This document shows, piece by piece, positions 19,163 to 27,037 of a stretch of 64,000 bases of DNA. The translations under genes and the position numbers were made by a program. The stretch covers positions 4,933 to 68,932 of the forward strand of contig CAKOSX010000005.1 of NCBI GenBank assembly GCA_934119935.1, in the 5' to 3' direction. This DNA comes from an uncultured Clostridia bacterium. GTDB lineage: Bacteria; Bacillota; Clostridia; TANB77; CAG-508. Below the pieces are notes generated by a model that did not search any database, had not been told where the DNA came from, and was given only the letters and a program-made list of their open reading frames with translations. The stretch's first letter is position 1, and every line of letters starts with the position of its first letter.

Positions 19163-20113
19163 ATGACAGAACGGCAACTCAAAATATTAAAGGAAGATTA
19201 TTTTTACATAACGGGAATAGTACGTGCAAAAACAGTTGACAAGTCTTTTATCGCAATCAAACTCGGCGTAAGTTGGCCTACTGTGAAGAAAAAAGTTGCA
19301 TCTTTGCTTAATGAAGGCATAATAATTAACGAAGGAGATTCTTATAAGTTCAATCCAGATATTTTAGACACATCATTATTTATTGGCATTTATTCTGATG
19401 GAATTAGCATTAATTGCATTGCACTGAATCTAGCCCAAGAAACTGTTGAATTAAGTGAAGTGCTCTCTAAGGAAAACTATGATAGTTTTATTGCAAGCAT
19501 TCATAACACAAACCTTAGTCTTTTGTCCAAAATCACATTTTTAGTTCATCTCTTCTCGCAAGAGGACAAAATACTAAATGTCGGCATTTCCATTCAGGGA
19601 ACAATAACTCTCTCAGGTGATGTCGTTATCTCCAATTCACATTTATCATTGAGCAGTTCTTCTTTCCTAGACAAATGTACACTTTTCGAAGCAGTACGAG
19701 CTAATTACTACATGTTAAAATCAGATCACTTACTAGATGATATGTGGTATCTGTATGTTGGCAATGACGCCATTTATCTGTTATCAAATGACACAATTAG
19801 TCCCGCCAAGGGATTAATTACTCTTGACACATGCGAGAAAAAGGCTATTAGCACGCTGTTTAAGCATAACACAGATCAAATTAGCCTTTTTGAGGCAAAA
19901 GACATCGTATTGCGTAAAATTATTCCTTTTATGCAGTTTGTACATCCTTCCATTTTAATCGTCGGAGGAGCTTTAGCCAGCCAGGAAGTTTCCAGTTTTG
20001 TCTATTCCGACTTTAAGGCTTTAAACATCAGCGAAGTAAAATTCGATGACAGCAACTTTACAAAGTCTATTGCATGCTTTGCGATGAGCAAGTTCTTCAA
20101 AGGTCGGGAATGA
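19163..20113 (+). CDS. putative winged-HTH regulator with a degenerate ROK/sugar-kinase-like C-terminal region
   Basis: N-terminal HTH-like segment (IAIKLGVSWPTVKKKVASLLNEGII). The remainder resembles ROK proteins only loosely. G+C looks slightly higher than the flanks. Confidence 0.35.
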   Translation: MTERQLKILKEDYFYITGIVRAKTVDKSFIAIKLGVSWPTVKKKVASLLNEGIIINEGDSYKFNPDILDTSLFIGIYSDGISINCIALNLAQETVELSEVLSKENYDSFIASIHNTNLSLLSKITFLVHLFSQEDKILNVGISIQGTITLSGDVVISNSHLSLSSSSFLDKCTLFEAVRANYYMLKSDHLLDDMWYLYVGNDAIYLLSNDTISPAKGLITLDTCEKKAISTLFKHNTDQISLFEAKDIVLRKIIPFMQFVHPSILIVGGALASQEVSSFVYSDFKALNISEVKFDDSNFTKSIACFAMSKFFKGRE

Positions 20114-20115
20114 TA

Positions 20116-20394
20116 TCATTCGCAATAAAAGAGTCGTATCTTCTGAATAGATGGTACGACTCTTTTAGGCATTTTTATCGTTTTCCTGACGTCAGGAAAA
20201 TGTTCAGTTACGCTAATACCAGTGTTTTCACAGGCAATCATTGCTTTATTTATTACCTTTTCAAAGTTCTCCCATTTATTATACTCTAATATCTTTTGTA
20301 ATTCTCTTCCATACCAATACTCAATTCAATTCTCGTCAATGTGTCTAGTGTCTTCAAACGTTTGATTTTCTCTCTTCGCATTTCTCATCCCCAT
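20116..20394 (-). pseudogene. DinD-like (DNA-damage-inducible protein D) 5' fragment with an in-frame TGA and a truncated C-terminus
   Basis: Manual translation gives MGMRNAKRENQTFEDTRHIDEN*IEYWYGRELQKILEYNKWENFEKVINKAMIACENTGISVTEHFPDV... This matches the conserved DinD N-terminal block, then diverges and stops. Confidence 0.6.
20130..20166 (+). terminator. hairpin terminator after the ROK-like gene
   Basis: AGAGTCGTA/TACGACTCT stem followed by TTT. Confidence 0.6.
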
Positions 20395-20535
20395 CACTCC
20401 ATTTACATTTAATGGAATTAAATATAAAACGTTTGTTTGTGTTTGTCAAGCATTTTTTATATTTTCCTAAAAAAAAAGTTGTATTCTTCTAAATAGATAA
20501 TACAACCATTTTTCACTTAATACATATATAAATTT

Positions 20536-20620
20536 TGGTGGAGATGAAGGGAGTTGCCAAGCCGCGTCGGGAAAATTGTCCACTGGACAATTTTCTATTC
20601 CTCCTTTTCGACTCCCTAGA
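20536..20620 (-). repeat. distal att-like unit: 21-nt tmRNA 3'-end core plus a 64-nt conserved arm
   Basis: TGGTGGAGATGAAGGGAGTTG, then GCCAAGCCGCGTCGGGAAAATTGTCCACTGGACAATTTTC... Nearly identical to 25063-25147. Confidence 0.8.
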
Positions 20621-20926
20621 ACTTTATATTATTCATTTAAGTTATATATAAAGTTCTAGTTTTTCTTTCTGTTCTGGTGCCATCGAGGTAGTTATCTACA
20701 ACTTTTTGGCTCTCATAACGATTGAGACAAATATCAATCAATTTATATATAAATTAACAGATTTTTTTATAAAAATCAAGAAATTTTATAAAAAAATCTT
20801 GCGAAATTTTGTTTCTTTTATATTGATTAATTTTAAATTCTATGTTATACTAGCTGACATAGGAAATGATGATAAGCAGATGTGGTTTTGCCACCAATTA
20901 TACGAAATATCGTAAGAGAGGTGGTG

Positions 20927-21046
20927 ATGTTTATGGTTAAAGTGATACTATTTTTTATAATATCATTTATGTTATCTTTAACATTAAACGTTGCCTTGAC
21001 AGCAGTTCTGTATAAGAACTGGGTTGATAAGCAACTACATAAATAA
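20927..21046 (+). CDS. small hydrophobic peptide, type I toxin-like (39 aa, or 37 aa from the second ATG)
   Basis: GAGGTGGTG SD. MFMVKVILFFIISFMLSLTLNVALTAVLYKNWVDKQLHK has a single TM helix and a basic tail. A paralogue lies at 59271-59372. Confidence 0.6.
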   Translation: MFMVKVILFFIISFMLSLTLNVALTAVLYKNWVDKQLHK

Positions 21047-21049
21047 AAA

Positions 21050-21135
21050 AGCTCACATCTGTAACTTTGGCGAGTTAGGTGTGAGTTTTTACAACTAATT
21101 TCGGCAAAACCACGTTTGTGGGTTTGTCATTTCCT
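21050..21135 (-). ncRNA. predicted antisense (antitoxin-like) RNA convergent with the peptide gene
   Basis: Minus-strand promoter TTGACT-17-TATAAT (21170-21142). The start lies near AGGAAATGAC, and the RNA shares the bidirectional hairpin at 21050-21085. Confidence 0.45.
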
Positions 21136-21190
21136 ATATTTATTATACACAGATATTTAAGAAAAGTCAAATAAAATTTCGCAATTAAAA

Positions 21191-21646
21191 TTATTTACTA
21201 AAAAATCTTATTATAAATTTCCATACTTTTTTATACCATTTAATATTATTTATTTCTATTAAATCTAATTTTTGCTCTTGTTCGGTAGCATCCAAAATAA
21301 TTTTTTTCTTATTATTCTTAAAAATATTATCAGAATTATATCTTTCTTTCTTTTTTTCTTCTAATTGCATTCTATCATAATTTTGTTTAGTAATAATTTT
21401 TTCTTTTTGTAATTCTGTAGCCCAATAATCTCTAAATAAAATCGCAATAATTGCTTTTGCAGTTTTTGATACATTTTGTTCATCTAAAGTTTTATTTGGA
21501 TTATATTTAAATATATATTCTTTATTGTGATTTGTTTCGAAAAGCTCTATTTTAGAATTTGGTATTTTTTCATAATCTTCTTTGGAAATGTATTTTAAAA
21601 TTTCTAAAACTTCACTATAAGCATTTGCATATTCAACACTTACCAT
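21191..21646 (-). CDS. hypothetical protein (151 aa), translationally coupled to the upstream 787-aa gene
   Basis: The ATG lies 1 nt after the upstream stop. N-terminal helical region and Lys-rich C-terminal half. No family recognised. Confidence 0.6.
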   Translation of the reverse strand: MVSVEYANAYSEVLEILKYISKEDYEKIPNSKIELFETNHNKEYIFKYNPNKTLDEQNVSKTAKAIIAILFRDYWATELQKEKIITKQNYDRMQLEEKKKERYNSDNIFKNNKKKIILDATEQEQKLDLIEINNIKWYKKVWKFIIRFFSK

Positions 21647-21647
21647 T

Positions 21648-24011
21648 TTATCCTCCTATAGTTGCTTGATTTTCCTTTGTTTTATCTAAATCTCTTTCTT
21701 GACTTTCAATTGTTCTTTCAGTTTCATCTATTAAAATAGTATCAGATATTTCATCAATAACTTGTTTTCCTAATTTTTGTCCATTTGTTAATTGACTATC
21801 TTTAAATCTATCTTTACACATCTCTATAAATTCTAAATGAGTAAAAATCTTTTTATAGTCCATTCCAAACTCTTGCAACCACTTCTGAATTCTTTCTTTG
21901 TTTTCTTCTGTTGTAATTATTCCAACAAATCTGTCATCATCTTCCTTAAAATCAATTGATTGAACTCCTCCTGGTACTTCAGAGCCAAAATTTTCTAAAC
22001 CTTTATAAATCTCATCTTTTTTTGGATAAAATGCAAATATAGCTCCATAAGGTCTGGCTGAGTCGATTCCTGGGTCTGCAAATTCAACAGGAACATGAAT
22101 ATCATATTTATTAGCAACAGCAATTTGTATAGCAAACGATTTGAAATCTACACCTCTTTCTTCAGGTGTTTTTAGTCCACCAGTCTTTAATATTTCATAT
22201 ATTGCTGCAATATCATTATTCCCGTGAAATACCATAGGAATGCCATCTGGTATAATTTCAGCAACTTGCTTGCTAAATGACTGACGAATTCTTTTCCTTT
22301 CTTCTAAATCTTCTGGAATATCTTCTCTCATATATGAAAGTTGATTTTCTAGCTCATTTATTCTTCTTTTTATCTTTTCAACTCGACTACCATATGCCTC
22401 TGCTTTTCTTGTTTCATTATTCTTTATCGCTTCATCATACATTGTTTTATATTTTGTTAAACTATTTTTTTGACTTTCTAAAATTTTTCTAACATACATT
22501 TTTTTATTTTCAAGCATAATTGTTTGATTCCTTTCTAAGCCAGAGTATAAGCCTGCATACCTTGTTTGAGCTATCTCTCTTTGCAATCCTTGTTCATAAG
22601 TTTTTCTATTAGTTCTTTCTAAATTATGATCTAATGTATCACTTATAGACCAATATGTTATTCCATCTAACTGTACTCCAGTTTCTTCAATAGCTTTTGA
22701 AATTTCATCCATTCTCATTGATTTAAACTCTGCTATACTTCCAATAGTAATACCACTTTTACTTATTTTACTATTAATAAGTTCTACCAAATCCTGCTCA
22801 GAACGTATTTTTCCATTTTCATCAAACATAAATCTTTCTGGTAAACACATATCAAATTCTGTTATTTGAGTTCTAATTCCTAATTGTTCTAATCTTTTAA
22901 AGGCCTCAAAACATTGTCTAATATCATCTGTATTTTGTGTCATCTCAATATGCATCTGTGTACCAATTGTATCAATTAATCCAGGAGCTAGTCCATTAAT
23001 TCGAGATAATTGTTCTATTACAACTTGTCTTCTTTCAGGATTTTCCAAAAACGGTTCATTATATACATACGTTACTCCATCTGGTTTGTTTTCTAATGCA
23101 TACTGAAAAATGCTAACTAATTCTTCGTTGGAAATTCCGTATAATTCTTGCCACATATTTCTGTATGGTTCATCAAAAGAAATTATCTCATTAAGCAAAT
23201 CTACAGAACATATTACTCCTTTTCCATTTATCTTATGCTCCTCATTATATTTTGAAATAAAATCTATAGATTTCTTTACATATTTTTGCAGTTCTCCTAA
23301 AACATATTCTTTTTGCTTGCCTATTAAATGTTCTTCCATAGTTTGTTTATCTAATAATGTATGATATCTTGCATACATTCCATTTTTATAGCAAAAATCT
23401 AGACCCCTTTGAGCATAATAAAAATCATATTTTTCCATATTTGGTATATGTTCATCATACATTTTTTTTGTAACATCATAATATCTTCCTGCTCCTATTA
23501 GAAGAGTATTATGATTAGATAAAATATCATTTAATCCGGATAATTCTTCATAAGTTATGCTTGTCATTTGATCTCTTTCTGTTCCAATAAATCTATGAGC
23601 TTTTTCTGTAAAAATATCATAACTTTCAGGGTGTTCTGCTTTTAATTTTTTCTTAATACCTTCATAACCATTATTTTGAAATACTGAAATGTATGAATCT
23701 ACTTCATCAGCAGTAATTCCTGAATGCTTTAATGCTAATTTCAAAACACTTCTTCTGTTTTTAATACTTTGTTCCATTGATACTAATGTGCTCTTATATT
23801 GTTCGACAAGCATTCTTTTTATATCTTCAATATCGTTATCATTCCAACTAGTTAAATCTTCTTCAGAAATATTTAACTGTGAACAATTAATTGCAAAATC
23901 TTTTAATTCTTCTATATTTTTACATTGAATTATACTTAATAATTCAATAGTTTCTGAATTCAAATAAATTCCATTTATTTGACTCTCTAACTTTAATGAA
24001 AATTCTTGCAC
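21648..24011 (-). CDS. large multidomain island protein: GH10-like TIM-barrel region, coiled coil, and a possible ADP-ribosyltransferase/Tpt1-like C-terminal domain
   Basis: Blocks YDFYYAQRGLDFCYKNGMYARYHTLLD, VDLLNEI, YVYNEPF, IDTIGTQMHI, QITEFDM and GITYWSISD parallel the GH10 signature blocks. The C-terminal segment reads VFHGNNDIAAIYEILKTGGL. No signal peptide. Confidence 0.55.
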   Translation of the reverse strand: MQEFSLKLESQINGIYLNSETIELLSIIQCKNIEELKDFAINCSQLNISEEDLTSWNDNDIEDIKRMLVEQYKSTLVSMEQSIKNRRSVLKLALKHSGITADEVDSYISVFQNNGYEGIKKKLKAEHPESYDIFTEKAHRFIGTERDQMTSITYEELSGLNDILSNHNTLLIGAGRYYDVTKKMYDEHIPNMEKYDFYYAQRGLDFCYKNGMYARYHTLLDKQTMEEHLIGKQKEYVLGELQKYVKKSIDFISKYNEEHKINGKGVICSVDLLNEIISFDEPYRNMWQELYGISNEELVSIFQYALENKPDGVTYVYNEPFLENPERRQVVIEQLSRINGLAPGLIDTIGTQMHIEMTQNTDDIRQCFEAFKRLEQLGIRTQITEFDMCLPERFMFDENGKIRSEQDLVELINSKISKSGITIGSIAEFKSMRMDEISKAIEETGVQLDGITYWSISDTLDHNLERTNRKTYEQGLQREIAQTRYAGLYSGLERNQTIMLENKKMYVRKILESQKNSLTKYKTMYDEAIKNNETRKAEAYGSRVEKIKRRINELENQLSYMREDIPEDLEERKRIRQSFSKQVAEIIPDGIPMVFHGNNDIAAIYEILKTGGLKTPEERGVDFKSFAIQIAVANKYDIHVPVEFADPGIDSARPYGAIFAFYPKKDEIYKGLENFGSEVPGGVQSIDFKEDDDRFVGIITTEENKERIQKWLQEFGMDYKKIFTHLEFIEMCKDRFKDSQLTNGQKLGKQVIDEISDTILIDETERTIESQERDLDKTKENQATIGG

Positions 24012-24086
24012 TTTTTCACCTTCTATTGTTTAATTCAAAAATATTATATCAATAACTTTTAATTTTTACAATGATTTAGAACATTT

Positions 24087-24383
24087 TTAAGTATAATTAA
24101 TATTGTTAAACAAATATAATGCTACTTTATTTTGCTCTGTTGTTTCCATTTCCATAAGTTTAGCCATTGCAAACATTACAATCTTATATTTAGCAAAGTT
24201 TCTAAGTGTAATTCTATACTCTTCATCAATATCTTTTAGCATAGTATCAAATTTTTCATAATTGTCTTTAGTATTATATGACCATTTACTTTGACTCATA
24301 CATATTGCTAGTCTTAATTTATCTTTTATATCCATGTCATTTATCCTATTTATTAAATATTTTATTTTTTCACTTTCCAACAT
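24087..24383 (-). CDS. hypothetical protein (98 aa)
   Basis: ORF only. Same strand as, and upstream of, the 787-aa gene. Confidence 0.4.
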   Translation of the reverse strand: MLESEKIKYLINRINDMDIKDKLRLAICMSQSKWSYNTKDNYEKFDTMLKDIDEEYRITLRNFAKYKIVMFAMAKLMEMETTEQNKVALYLFNNINYT

Positions 24384-24391
24384 TGCACTCC

Positions 24392-24948
24392 TTACTTTAA
24401 TTCCATATTATTTTTCTTTTTAACATTAGTATTATTAAGTTCATCTGCTGGTTTAATTTTTCTTGATATATCATTAACAATTCGATTATCATTGTCATCA
24501 AAAATACCATTTTTATATAGGTCATCGCTAACATATTTATACTTTTCATCTTTATCAAATCCAATTTTATTTTGGAAGTATTTAATTAACTTATGCCAAA
24601 ATCCTTTGAATTTTTGTAGCTCTGTTTTAAGCTTTGCTTTTTCAGTTTGTAATTTATTAATAATCTTATCTTTAGTAGATAATTCGCTTTTCAAACTGAT
24701 AATTTGATCTTTTTAGATAAATTAGAAATATAAACATCATTTGAATAATTGAAAACTAACAAATTAATGTTTTTTACAATTACCTTATGTGGTTCGATAT
24801 AAGATAAATTGGTCTTTTCAATTTTTCTAATACTACCTTTTATAAAAGTAGGAGTTACTTTTGAAAACTCACATATAAATTCTAGTCTTTGCTTTAAACT
24901 TTCCTCAAATTGTATTTCCTGTTTAATTATCTTCATTACAGACACCAT
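24392..24948 (-). pseudogene. frameshifted island ORF (85-aa and 100-aa pieces)
   Basis: The two ORFs abut in different frames around an A5 run (TCTAAAAAG). A one-nucleotide change would join ...YISNLSKK to DQIISLKSELSTKDK..., a continuous coiled coil. Confidence 0.45.
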
Positions 24949-25062
24949 CCTTTCGTTTGGATGATTTTTATATTGTTTTTAAACAACAAAAAAATCAACC
25001 AGATTTATTTTCTGATTGATTTTTGTATCTATCTGTTTTATTAGTTCGAACAGATACGTCAT

Positions 25063-25147
25063 TGGTGGAGATGAGGGGAGTTGCCGAGCCGCGTCGGGAA
25101 AATTGTCCACTGGACAATTTTCTATTCCTCCTTTTCAACTCCCTAGA
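25063..25147 (-). repeat. proximal att-like unit: 21-nt tmRNA 3'-end core plus a 64-nt conserved arm
   Basis: TGGTGGAGATGAGGGGAGTTG, then GCCGAGCCGCGTCGGGAAAATTGTCCACTGGACAATTTTC... It lies only 51 nt from the true tmRNA end. Confidence 0.8.
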
Positions 25148-25198: not shown

Positions 25199-25560
25199 TG
25201 GTGGAGATGAGGGGAGTTGAACCCCTGTCCAATATTCTTTCCATATACGTTTCTCCGAGTGCAGTTTGTTATTTAATTTTCCCTGTAAAATTCATTAACA
25301 AACAAACGGATTTTACAAGTAACCATTTGTTTTACCTACTGTTTTAATGGCTAAAACAGTGTTGTTATCCTACTAATTGACGCCTTATCTAAGACCGTAG
25401 GCCTTCTTAGTAAGACGGGCCGCCTAAGCTTAGGCAGCGTATGCTAATTCTGTATTATCAGCGTTTATTTTTATTTCTGCTTTTTTATAGTGGCCGAAGC
25501 AGCCATCCACTACTCGCTACATATACTTCTGGGATACTGTCGAAAACCAAATACATCCCC
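25199..25560 (-). ncRNA. ssrA: transfer-messenger RNA (tmRNA)
   Basis: The 5' end GGGGATGTATTTGGTTTTCGACAG pairs with the 3' end CATCTCCACCA. T-arm AGGGGTTCAACTCCCCT. Tag reading frame GCT GAT AAT ACA GAA TTA GCA TAC GCT GCC TAA encodes ADNTELAYAA. Confidence 0.93.
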
Positions 25561-25679
25561 ATATGTATTTATTATACTCTAATTTCACATTAAAGTCCAC
25601 TATTTTTTTATACTATACATAATTTTCGAAATAATTTACTTTATAGTTAACTGGCACACCATAAAAGTACATTTATAAT

Positions 25680-25708
25680 TTGACATAAAGTGGAAAATGT
25701 CGTATAAT
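25680..25708 (+). promoter_or_regulatory. perfect consensus sigma-A promoter (TTGACA-17-TATAAT)
   Basis: Read directly; located 62 nt upstream of the ATG at 25770. Confidence 0.75.
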
Positions 25709-25769
25709 AGGAGTAGAGGCGTTTGCCTTTTTTACACACACAAAAAACATCAGAAAAAGGAGATAGACT

Positions 25770-26885
25770 ATGAATCAAAAAGAATTAGTTAATCCTAGCG
25801 CCGTTCCGACTCTCAAGTTTCGGAGTAAGTTTTTAAGGTTGTTTGAGACCTTATCCGAGAGCACTCAAAAGGAGTTGTACTCGATTATCGAGAAATTTGT
25901 AAACGAGCAGAATGACGTGTATGCAGCCGACATCCTGTGGAAGATTACTTATAACTGTTTTTGGGGGCTTAGCATTCTTGGTCTGAAGGTAAAGGATGAA
26001 ATCTTTAAAGACATCCTTGTTCTTGAGGAGAAATACCGTTCTCCTCACGCAAGGCCGCTCGAGATTCCTCCTGAACTTGTGACACCACTTAAGAACGAAC
26101 TTAGGTTTCAGCGGAAAAAATTTCATCCAGATTTTCTAATTGTTCATTTCCCTGAGGAATGTGAACAACCTTTCAAGAAGCTTTTGGATGCTTCTGCCGA
26201 TCCAGTTCTAACATACGTCGCATGTTATCATTGTTACGATGTTTGTTACTTATCCAATGAGCAGGAAGTTGAAAGAATTCTATTCCTGCTAAAAAGCAAA
26301 GTTAAAGAGAACGTATTTGGTGGAATCCGAAGCTTGAAGTTTAGTTACGAACAGGCTCAATATTTCATGAAGTTAGCACCTTACATTGCTAACTATCTGG
26401 AAGCTCTTTGGCAATCAATTCTTCCAGAAAAAGAACCTGTTTTGAACACCCCGCTTGCAGCTCCGCTCGAAGCATGGCGTGATTCTCACTCCGAAGCACT
26501 ATCGTCTGATGAGCTTCCTTTTGATGAAAGCTCTGCCGAAGAAGTTTTTGGCGAGAACAACTCCACACAACAACCTGCTATGGATGAAATGCCCGAGGAC
26601 ATTGATGAGTCTCTCCAATCTCAGCTATCTTGCCTAAAATCAGCACTTTCTGTTGATTTAGTGGCAAAAAGACCTCTGTCTGTGCACAATATTCTTTCAG
26701 ACAGAGAGCTTTTCCAAAAGCTGTTGGAAAAGGCCTACGATGACTCTTTCAAAAAGTCACTAGGCGAGTTTGCTCAGATTGTGTATGCTCTAAAAAGCAG
26801 GGGCTACGATTACAAAGAGGCAATTGTTGTTTTACCCAGAATCGAAGCAATAATTGGTTCCATGTCTATTCTGGAAGGGGCTTAA
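25770..26885 (+). CDS. hypothetical protein (371 aa) with an acidic, probably disordered central segment; compositionally foreign
   Basis: AAGGAG SD. G+C is visibly higher than in surrounding genes. Followed by a strong hairpin terminator. No family recognised. Confidence 0.6.
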   Translation: MNQKELVNPSAVPTLKFRSKFLRLFETLSESTQKELYSIIEKFVNEQNDVYAADILWKITYNCFWGLSILGLKVKDEIFKDILVLEEKYRSPHARPLEIPPELVTPLKNELRFQRKKFHPDFLIVHFPEECEQPFKKLLDASADPVLTYVACYHCYDVCYLSNEQEVERILFLLKSKVKENVFGGIRSLKFSYEQAQYFMKLAPYIANYLEALWQSILPEKEPVLNTPLAAPLEAWRDSHSEALSSDELPFDESSAEEVFGENNSTQQPAMDEMPEDIDESLQSQLSCLKSALSVDLVAKRPLSVHNILSDRELFQKLLEKAYDDSFKKSLGEFAQIVYALKSRGYDYKEAIVVLPRIEAIIGSMSILEGA

Positions 26886-26927
26886 GCTTATGATAGCTAT
26901 CCCCATATCACTTCCTGAGACACCAGG

Positions 26928-26965
26928 AGTGGCAGACTAACTTGTCTGCCACTTTTGGTATTTTT
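26928..26965 (+). terminator. rho-independent terminator
   Basis: AGTGGCAGAC/GTCTGCCACT stem followed by TTTTGGTATTTTT. Confidence 0.8.
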
Positions 26966-27037
26966 ATAATTTAATTAATTTTTTTTCTTTTAGTATTGCA
27001 CATTTTGCTATTTTATGCTATTATAATAAAGTCAGTT

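Follow-up and report, generated by a model that had tools for sequence, protein, structure and literature searches.

A 64,000-nucleotide (nt) stretch of contig CAKOSX010000005.1 (assembly GCA_934119935.1, positions 4,933 to 68,932 of the forward strand) from an uncultured Clostridia bacterium, hereafter the window, carries on its minus strand a coupled pair of genes encoding proteins of 787 and 151 amino acids (aa), which we designated p787 and p151. p787 is predicted to join two modules, namely module A, in which a helical N-domain precedes a barrel of the glycoside hydrolase family 10 (GH10) type, and module B, in which a coiled-coil-like segment precedes a domain resembling the ADP-ribosyltransferases (ARTs). 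Judged by gene content, the two genes form the accessory operon of an integrative mobilizable element of the Tn4451 type, now decayed. We consider this architecture and this element context to be highly probable. A role as an enzyme that modifies intracellular targets for the benefit of the element is proposed tentatively.

The p787 gene (21648 to 24011, minus strand) starts with GTG and is preceded by the Shine-Dalgarno (SD) sequence AAGGTGA and by a promoter-like site of the extended −10 type at positions 24071 to 24043. The p151 gene (21191 to 21646, minus strand) begins just past the p787 stop codon. The junction reads GGAGGA-TAA-A-ATG, and the strong SD sequence of p151, AGGAGGA, is located inside the 3' end of the p787 gene. 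Both open reading frames (ORFs) and the gap of exactly 1 nt between stop and start had been noted in an original prediction made from the sequence, and they were borne out. The region of the two genes has a GC content of 0.23 to 0.30, below that of its flanks. p787 has 319 homologues; of the 120 best ones, nearly all have lengths of 784 to 787 aa. In addition, a 98-aa protein, p98, is encoded at 24087 to 24383 (minus strand) and corresponds to the backbone gene that follows the Mob_Pre relaxase gene in intact copies of the element. The ratios of nonsynonymous to synonymous substitution rates (dN/dS), measured against copies 89% and 97% identical, were 0.24 to 0.27 for p787 overall, 0.25 for p151, and 0.13 for p98, and the strongest constraint within p787 was found in the ART-like domain (0.10 to 0.12). 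These values of 0.10 to 0.27 indicate that the ORFs are real, constrained genes, and p787, p151, and p98 are all under purifying selection.

The two modules of p787

The N-domain of module A (residues 1-170; 23502 to 24011, minus strand) is module-A-specific and conserved, occurring alongside the GH10 part in 38 representatives; G14, K65, Y72, and Y154 are its conserved residues. A sequence-profile search of the PDB with this domain gave chance matches only. The following GH10-type barrel (residues 171-480; 22572 to 23501, minus strand) was assigned by Pfam and by alignment to 1vbr. Residues 189-458 matched PF00331 (Glyco_hydro_10) with an E value of 1.1e-20 and 74.6 bits against a cutoff of 22.1, and relatives reached 72 to 105 bits. 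phmmer against the PDB retrieved about 50 GH10 xylanases, the best being Thermotoga XynB (1vbr, E=1e-10), and the intracellular xylanase IXT6 was among them. In the 1vbr alignment, ARYHTLLD, LLNEI, and ITEFDM of p787 corresponded to GHTLVWH, WDVVNE, and ITEMD, respectively, as the original prediction had proposed when it likened this region to GH10. A (beta/alpha)8 barrel is predicted from the profile match only, which spans positions 51-279 of 311.

The candidate acid/base pair N274-E275 (E275 at 23187-23189, minus strand) aligned with WDVVNE of 1vbr, and the candidate nucleophile E385 (22857-22859, minus strand) with ITEMD. Conservation was examined in an alignment of p787 with 38 family representatives drawn from 50%-identity clusters (n=39). 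N274/E275, E385, and H354 were kept in 38 of the 39 sequences, Q352 and W454 in 37, and H217 in 33. On the other hand, ENxMKW, the first substrate-binding block of GH10, reads KKMYDE in p787 and falls in a gapped, unconserved region of the alignment, and HTLVWH of GH10 has become HTLLDK, with loss of the W-H that follows HTL. In agreement with the original prediction, p787 has no signal peptide; it has no transmembrane (TM) segment either, the maximal 19-residue Kyte-Doolittle mean being 1.0. The retention of the catalytic residues, the loss of ENxMKW, and the lack of a hydrophobic segment together suggest that p787 contains a catalytically competent GH10-type retaining glycosidase without a signal peptide, whose sugar-binding subsites are probably altered.

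p787 thus shares the N-E, T-E-x-D, Q-x-H, and W-x-x-D blocks with GH10 endo-beta-1,4-xylanases (XynB, 1VBR; Geobacillus IXT6, 1N82/2Q8X) and resembles IXT6 in having no signal peptide. It differs from these xylanases in its identity of only about 25%, in the extra helical N-domain of about 170 aa, and in the lost ENxMKW and WH blocks. Furthermore, its family lies behind Mob_Pre genes on mobile elements, and none of the 22 loci surveyed was a carbohydrate locus. No description of a relaxase-linked GH10 gene was found in the literature. Distant module-A proteins also have no signal peptide, and several of them end in a Lys-rich stretch and a single TM helix, the basic side of this anchor facing the cytoplasm. 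A HExxH region occurs in some distant members (P0228, P0274), and another carries a fused PHP phosphoesterase.

Module B begins with a coiled-coil-like helical segment (residues 481-590; 22242 to 22571, minus strand), which was modelled as a helix by AlphaFold2 (AF2) and gave weak coiled-coil-type Pfam matches, in agreement with the heptad-rich linker described earlier. It corresponds to the N-terminal region of about 90 aa in free-standing module-B proteins. The ART-fold-like alpha/beta domain follows (residues 591-745; 21777 to 22241, minus strand). Residues 480-787 had no Pfam, NCBIfam, PHROG, or PADLOC family match, and a PDB sequence-profile search with module B gave chance matches only (calmodulin, E>0.04). 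A search with the C-terminal part alone retrieved about 60 proteins of 245 to 300 aa, each consisting of a helical N-terminus of about 90 aa and the same domain of about 150 aa. The AF2 model of the trimmed domain, built with 58 diverse sequences, had a pLDDT of 90.9 and a pTM of 0.86. The top three Foldseek matches of this model in the PDB were Thermus DarT (E=0.044-0.061, probability 0.72-0.87, TMq 0.45-0.49), and PARP-1 catalytic fragments (E of about 1 to 4) and two DarTG entries came at lower ranks; no match reached E<=0.001. DarT was likewise ranked first with an earlier, untrimmed AF2 model. Among the viral models of BFVD, the best matches were uncharacterised giant-virus proteins (probability 0.97-0.99), with PARP-like, WWE-domain, and "polyvalent protein associated" proteins at lower ranks.

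When the 58 module-B members were scanned singly, PTS_2-RNA (PF01885) was the sole Pfam family matched by more than one of them (two members, E>=0.016). hhalign placed PMVFHGNNDIAAIYEILKTGGLKTPEER on the first ART motif of Escherichia coli KptA over 36 columns (E=0.042, probability 1.2%), so that, with these weak statistics, FHG of VFHGNN...ILKTGGL was aligned with YHGT...IKKQGL. The likeness to the first motif of ARTs and KptA that the original prediction had seen is consistent with this alignment and with the DarT and PARP folds. F595, F659, and E703 were invariant across the 58 sequences, and H596 was present in at least 90% of them. The original prediction had also pointed to the segment RPYGAIF; its Tyr, however, is not conserved and is often replaced by Ala. 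H-F-E thus takes the place of H-Y-E as the candidate triad, comprising H596 (22224-22226), F659 (22035-22037), which is in a predicted strand, and E703 (21903-21905), which is located just after a strand and not at its start (all on the minus strand). Variant ART triads have been documented elsewhere, for example in AcrIF11 (PMC8120803).

An ART-like fold is consequently the best-supported and the only recurrent assignment for the C-terminal domain, and the models support it weakly to moderately. As in DarT (PDB 7OMV), a His on an N-terminal beta-strand is followed by an "IL..GGL" helix, and a Glu that looks essential lies about three quarters along the domain. However, module B differs from DarT in its identity of 8-9%, its TM-score of 0.49, the absence of DUF4433, and the attached coiled coil of about 90 aa. 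It differs from DarTG in that there is no macrodomain or NADAR antitoxin and p151 is not domain-specific. Similarly, FHG...ILKTGGL...R of module B aligns with YHGT...IKKQGL...R of Tpt1/KptA (PF01885), whereas module B lies far below the threshold of this family (E=0.016) and lacks its winged-helix N-lobe and R-H-R-R tetrad. Downstream of the ART-like domain, p787 ends in an acidic tail (residues 746-787; 21651 to 21776, minus strand).

An exhaustive search of 50%-identity cluster representatives yielded 405 relatives, which split into proteins with module A only (residues 1 to about 500 of p787) and proteins with module B only (residues about 500 to 745). The former are typically 490 to 650 aa long, some being larger with extra regions, and the latter typically about 250 aa. 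The full A-B architecture of 787 aa was confined to one 50%-identity cluster. Among the related loci, which are given L numbers here, the fusion is encoded at L051 and L055-L057 (89-98% identity to p787), A-only proteins of 537-547 aa at 12 loci (50-93% identity to the matching part), and B-only proteins at L009-L011, where codons of about 2 to 468 have been lost by an internal deletion, and at L012-L014 (77-78% identity). The acidic tails of A-only, B-only, and A-B proteins are homologous (E=0.004 by blastp between the tail regions). Judging from these sequences, p787 arose by fusion of two autonomous modules, each of which is common alone. The idea that A and B form an obligate writer/eraser pair was weakened, since the fusion occurs in one cluster and A-only genes with p151 are commoner than the fusion.

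tblastn searches of plasmid and phage collections retrieved ordinary GH10 xylanases only and no relatives of p787. The 19 distant solo module-B genes, found in uncultured Clostridia, Bacilli, and Saccharibacteria, had neither p151 nor a recurrent neighbour, their neighbours being housekeeping genes. A 531-aa gene that follows module A in L016 was considered as a separate module-B gene; it encodes a BspA-type leucine-rich repeat protein, and this candidate was ruled out. At L050 (10001-15524), a 1464-aa protein consists of module B followed by an ADPrib_exo_Tox domain. Its gene is located directly after TraC-like/VirB4-like genes and directly before an ADP-ribosylglycohydrolase gene, and the arrangement looks like a predicted ART effector linked to a type IV secretion system (T4SS) and accompanied by an immunity enzyme.

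The decayed Tn4451-type element and the tmRNA island

blastn revealed DNA homology (87-89%) between 20675 and 25079 of the window (minus strand) and Tn4451-type copies elsewhere. In the intact copies of L020, L021, and L023, the gene order is an 89-aa ORF, a serine recombinase gene, Mob_Pre, a 100-aa ORF, the 784-aa and 151-aa genes, and an antisense small hydrophobic ORF; the Resolvase+Recombinase protein is 639 aa and the Mob_Pre relaxase 461 aa long. L023 is an otherwise intact element with a frameshifted 784-aa gene. Three parts of this backbone remain beside p787/p151 in the window. p98 is 82% identical to the 100-aa gene of the intact copies (tblastn). An adjoining 100-aa ORF (24392 to 24694, minus strand) represents the last 96 or so codons of the Mob_Pre gene and matches the C-terminal end of the 461-aa relaxase with 59% identity. 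p85, an 85-aa ORF at 24691 to 24948 (minus strand), is the first gene of the element and is 84-88% identical to the leftmost gene of the intact copies, which encodes 89 aa. A deletion in the window copy has fused p85 directly to the Mob_Pre remnant, leaving a 4.4-kb derivative from which the serine recombinase gene is missing, as is most of the relaxase gene. Further decayed copies were found at unrelated sites, namely L001/L002, which adjoin a tRNA-Leu gene, L018/L019, and L022.

The assignment to the Tn4451 type is based on gene content and on multiple insertion sites. Members of the Tn4451/Tn4453 family carry a serine integrase and a MobV relaxase and integrate at many sites (PMC5704250). 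The intact relatives agree with Tn4451/Tn4453 (TnpX, TnpZ) in carrying a large serine recombinase and Mob_Pre, in occupying many sites, and in having TnpV genes adjoining related loci. On the other hand, their cargo is the 787/151 pair and not catP/catD, and the window copy, from which both mobility genes have been lost, is situated in a separate tmRNA island bounded by the 86-nt repeats. Three divergent lineages have a module-A gene immediately behind Mob_Pre, namely the L020 type (89% identity), L090 (40%), and L049 (about 30%). The proteins of L049 (8409-14299) and L090 (1245-6656) in this position are 1027 and 933 aa long, respectively, and that of L049 (P0274) contains a HExxH region and a C-terminal TM anchor. 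Each of these two genes is followed by two genes for proteins of about 200 aa, one of the two being weakly similar to Zn-dependent phospholipase C, and in L049 these are followed in turn by an Abi_2 gene.

The island itself is defined by the tmRNA gene at 25199-25560 (minus strand; ARAGORN; Rfam RF00023, 169.7 bits), whose 3' end is the insertion site. Two 86-nt direct repeats, 97% identical to each other, flank 4.5 kb of DNA in which there is no integrase. The left repeat (25062-25147) terminates with 21 nt that duplicate the tmRNA 3' end, and the right repeat (20535-20620) likewise terminates with a copy of that end. Within each repeat, AAAATTGTCC-AGT-GGACAATTTT makes up a perfect hairpin and GGGAGTTG / CAACTCCC an outer inverted repeat of 8 bp. 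Counting the tmRNA gene (25199-25219) as well as both repeats, three copies of the tmRNA 3' end exist, which points to tandem or nested insertions at ssrA. This organization suggests that a serine-recombinase element was nested inside an older tmRNA-targeting island, and loci with 89%-identical copies of the element reveal its former gene content.

A unit resembling type I toxin-antitoxin (TA) modules (20882 to 21170) forms the right end of the element and is conserved in all element copies. It comprises a strongly hydrophobic 54-aa ORF (20882-21046, plus strand) convergent on p151 and a sigma-70-like promoter with 11 of 12 matches at 21170-21142 (minus strand), from which a putative antisense RNA of about 100 nt would end at a hairpin and T-run near 21045. 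The original prediction had recognized the tmRNA island and this adjacent unit correctly, but it missed the real context, the decayed Tn4451-type element.

Possible functions of the p787/p151 pair

p151 consists of an N-terminal domain of about 85 aa, a Lys-rich linker containing the motif YNxDNIF (YNPDxxF in its family-wide form), and a C-terminal amphipathic helix. Scans against Pfam, PHROGs, NCBIfam, and PADLOC assigned it to no known family, nor did a Pfam scan of its relatives. Its family is about nine times larger than that of p787 (2760 database relatives versus 319). p151 is encoded directly 3' of A-B, A-only, and B-only genes alike, and it follows A-only genes at 12 loci versus four with the fusion. 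In L015 a p151 homologue (35% identity) is located upstream of the module-A gene, and in L029 an intact module B stands beside mere fragments of a p151-like gene. The occurrence of p151 beside all three forms and its absence from distant module-B genes are at odds with a role as cognate antitoxin or as immunity protein, and these distributions fit p151 being a constant helper or backbone gene.

In the reading that we favour, and put forward tentatively, p787 would be a modular enzyme of the polyvalent type, encoded by a mobile element and altering targets inside a cell to the advantage of that element. Module B would carry out NAD+-dependent ADP-ribosylation of some macromolecule, for which the analogy with DarT and Tpt1 makes a nucleic acid the likeliest candidate. 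The substrate of module A would be a glycoside other than xylan that is available in the cytoplasm or on the inner membrane face. For p151, with the acidic tail as its partner and with its Lys-rich linker and amphipathic helix, a role as a general adaptor or as a tether to the membrane is proposed rather than one as a cognate antitoxin; p151 would then provide in trans a counterpart of the Lys-rich stretch and TM anchor present in cis in distant module-A proteins. The polyvalent proteins described for conjugative elements are enzymes of several domains, among which ART domains are frequent, and their genes are flanked by relaxase or T4SS genes (PMC5512222). p787 resembles them in joining a GH10 and an ART-like domain in one polypeptide without a signal peptide, in the Mob_Pre gene upstream, and in the shuffling of its domains. 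GH10 is not mentioned in the text of that paper, in which "glycohydrolase", "TIM barrel", and "xylanase" do not occur.

Several observations weigh against this polyvalent-type reading. The pair is intact in at least four decayed copies without recombinase and relaxase (the window, L001/L002, L018/L019, and L022), and cargo that outlives the mobility genes fits a host-useful function better than a function in transfer only. Persistence in such immobile remnants also sets the pair apart from polyvalent proteins, as does domain content: MPTase-PolyVal, ArdC-N, MuF, and LPD domains were not detected by Pfam in p787 or its relatives (P0188-P0291). The ART fold match is below conventional significance (Foldseek E=0.04, TM-score 0.49, rmsd 6.4 Å), and only two of the 58 module-B members match PTS_2-RNA (E=0.016). 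Solo module-B genes amid housekeeping genes are untypical of conflict genes. Finally, p151-like genes are also found on the same contigs at a distance from module A or B, and the association of p151 with the modules may mean no more than that they share an element backbone.

The original prediction regarded the pair as a candidate defence or toxin module. Of that claim, gene coupling and mobile location stood, whereas the TA form was disfavoured. As a TA, abortive-infection, or defence module, p787 would be a DarT-like toxin checked by co-translated p151 and freed upon phage infection, which we judge to be rather unlikely. The tight translational coupling, the DarT toxin as best fold match, and the mobile island with a type-I-TA-like unit alongside are in keeping with such a module. 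So is the fact that, in decayed copies at several places on the chromosome, the genes have stayed intact and constrained by purifying selection, as expected of addictive or host-beneficial cargo, and DUF4238, AbiEii, or Abi_2 genes adjoin some copies. However, no PADLOC family was matched by the five island ORFs, and scans of all island ORFs against PHROGs and NCBIfam and of the other neighbouring small ORFs against Pfam gave nothing significant. No match to DUF4433, macro, or NADAR was obtained in p787, p151, or their neighbours, and no macrodomain, NADAR, or ARH antitoxin is adjacent to the pair in the window. Enrichment of PADLOC families near module A was considered and rejected as generic, the genes concerned being an AddA/UvrD-type helicase, a UvrA-type ABC ATPase, and a single Cas9. 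Moreover, p151 is not specific to the toxin-like domain, unlike the partner in type II TA or toxin-immunity pairs: the 12 A-only proteins that it follows lack the ART-like domain, it precedes module A in L015, its counterpart in L029 is fragmentary, and the 19 distant solo module-B genes have no recurrent neighbour.

Mobile elements are known to remodel surface glycans, and p787 could be a glycosidase tethered on the inner side of the membrane, through p151 here and through the TM tail in relatives, that trims lipid-linked precursors of cell-wall glycopolymers, alters the surface of the cell, and thereby blocks phage adsorption or the entry of competing elements. This is unlikely. The conserved catalytic machinery despite the absence of a signal peptide, the Lys-rich segments and C-terminal TM anchors of distant relatives with the basic side cytoplasmic, the Lys-rich linker and amphipathic helix of p151, and the retention of the genes in decayed elements would suit it. 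Nevertheless, no cell-wall glycopolymer genes lie nearby, envelope remodelling is pure inference, the ART-like domain would be left without a role, and B-only versions exist with the same partner p151. A more specific proposal, that the GH10-type barrel is no polysaccharide hydrolase but a cytoplasmic or membrane-face glycosidase cleaving a nucleotide-, ADP-ribose-, or DNA-linked sugar beside a new H-F-E family of ARTs, with p151 as adaptor in a new NAD+/glycoside conflict system, appears improbable at present.

The neighbours of the 22 module-A loci included GNAT (6), NUDIX (4), TnpV, Mob_Pre, integrase, and dUTPase genes. Secreted homologues in ordinary carbohydrate loci had been named at the outset as evidence against a defence role; no sugar- or xylan-utilisation genes were found around these loci. 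Very improbable, in the end, is an ordinary IXT6-like intracellular xylanase acting on imported xylo-oligosaccharides, with the C-terminal region as a non-catalytic oligomerisation or binding domain: the significant Pfam GH10 match, the PDB matches including IXT6, the intact catalytic residues, and a gut bacterium as host agree with it, whereas about 22 loci contain no sugar transporter, xylosidase, or xylose-utilisation genes, the ENxMKW block is not conserved, the genes are consistently on mobilizable elements behind a relaxase gene, and the C-terminal domain, with its invariant Glu, is the most constrained (dN/dS 0.10).

Both enzymatic superfamilies and the element type are already known. 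New are a GH10 subfamily with an N-domain and no signal peptide, which is relaxase-linked and sometimes tail-anchored, the module-B family as a putative ART-like branch, the p151 family, and the way in which these parts are combined. So far, no evidence marks p787/p151 as a categorically new system, and it resembles neither a classical TA system nor a listed defence system. Two uncharacterised families abundant in uncultured gut Clostridia, Bacilli, and Saccharibacteria are thereby brought to light, the relaxase-linked GH10 proteins and the proteins of about 250 aa with a coiled coil and an ART-like domain, together with p151 as a large family of small partner proteins to be defined. The bacterial roles of DarT and Tpt1 are only partly understood, and module B, if an active ART, would be a new branch next to them. 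A non-xylan intracellular GH10 substrate, if true, would widen the chemistry of a textbook carbohydrate-active enzyme family. The window also provides a concrete case of cargo outliving the mobility genes of a Tn4451-type element.

Other features around the tmRNA gene

L012 (9586-16852) is syntenic with the window and carries a different island at the tmRNA site, which indicates that the site is a variable hotspot. This island contains an uncharacterised 412-aa ORF, a B-only gene, p151, a hydrolase gene, tRNA-His/Gln, and an integrase gene, followed by DUF4238 and AbiEii. In L012, no more than 112 nt separate the tmRNA gene from the tRNA-Trp gene. From this spacing, 25561-27037 of the window (1.5 kb) would be foreign DNA that was inserted between these two genes, and no mobility gene is visible in it. 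This interval of the window contains a 371-aa ORF (25770-26885, plus strand), which has a GC content of 0.36-0.41 against about 0.31 around it and no family match. On the other side, just outside the right 86-nt repeat, there is a short, apparently truncated frame at 20113-20420 (minus strand) that contains ...WENFEKVINKAMIACENTGISVTEHFPDVRKTIKMPK... and presumably resembles DinD/Bro-type phage-associated proteins.

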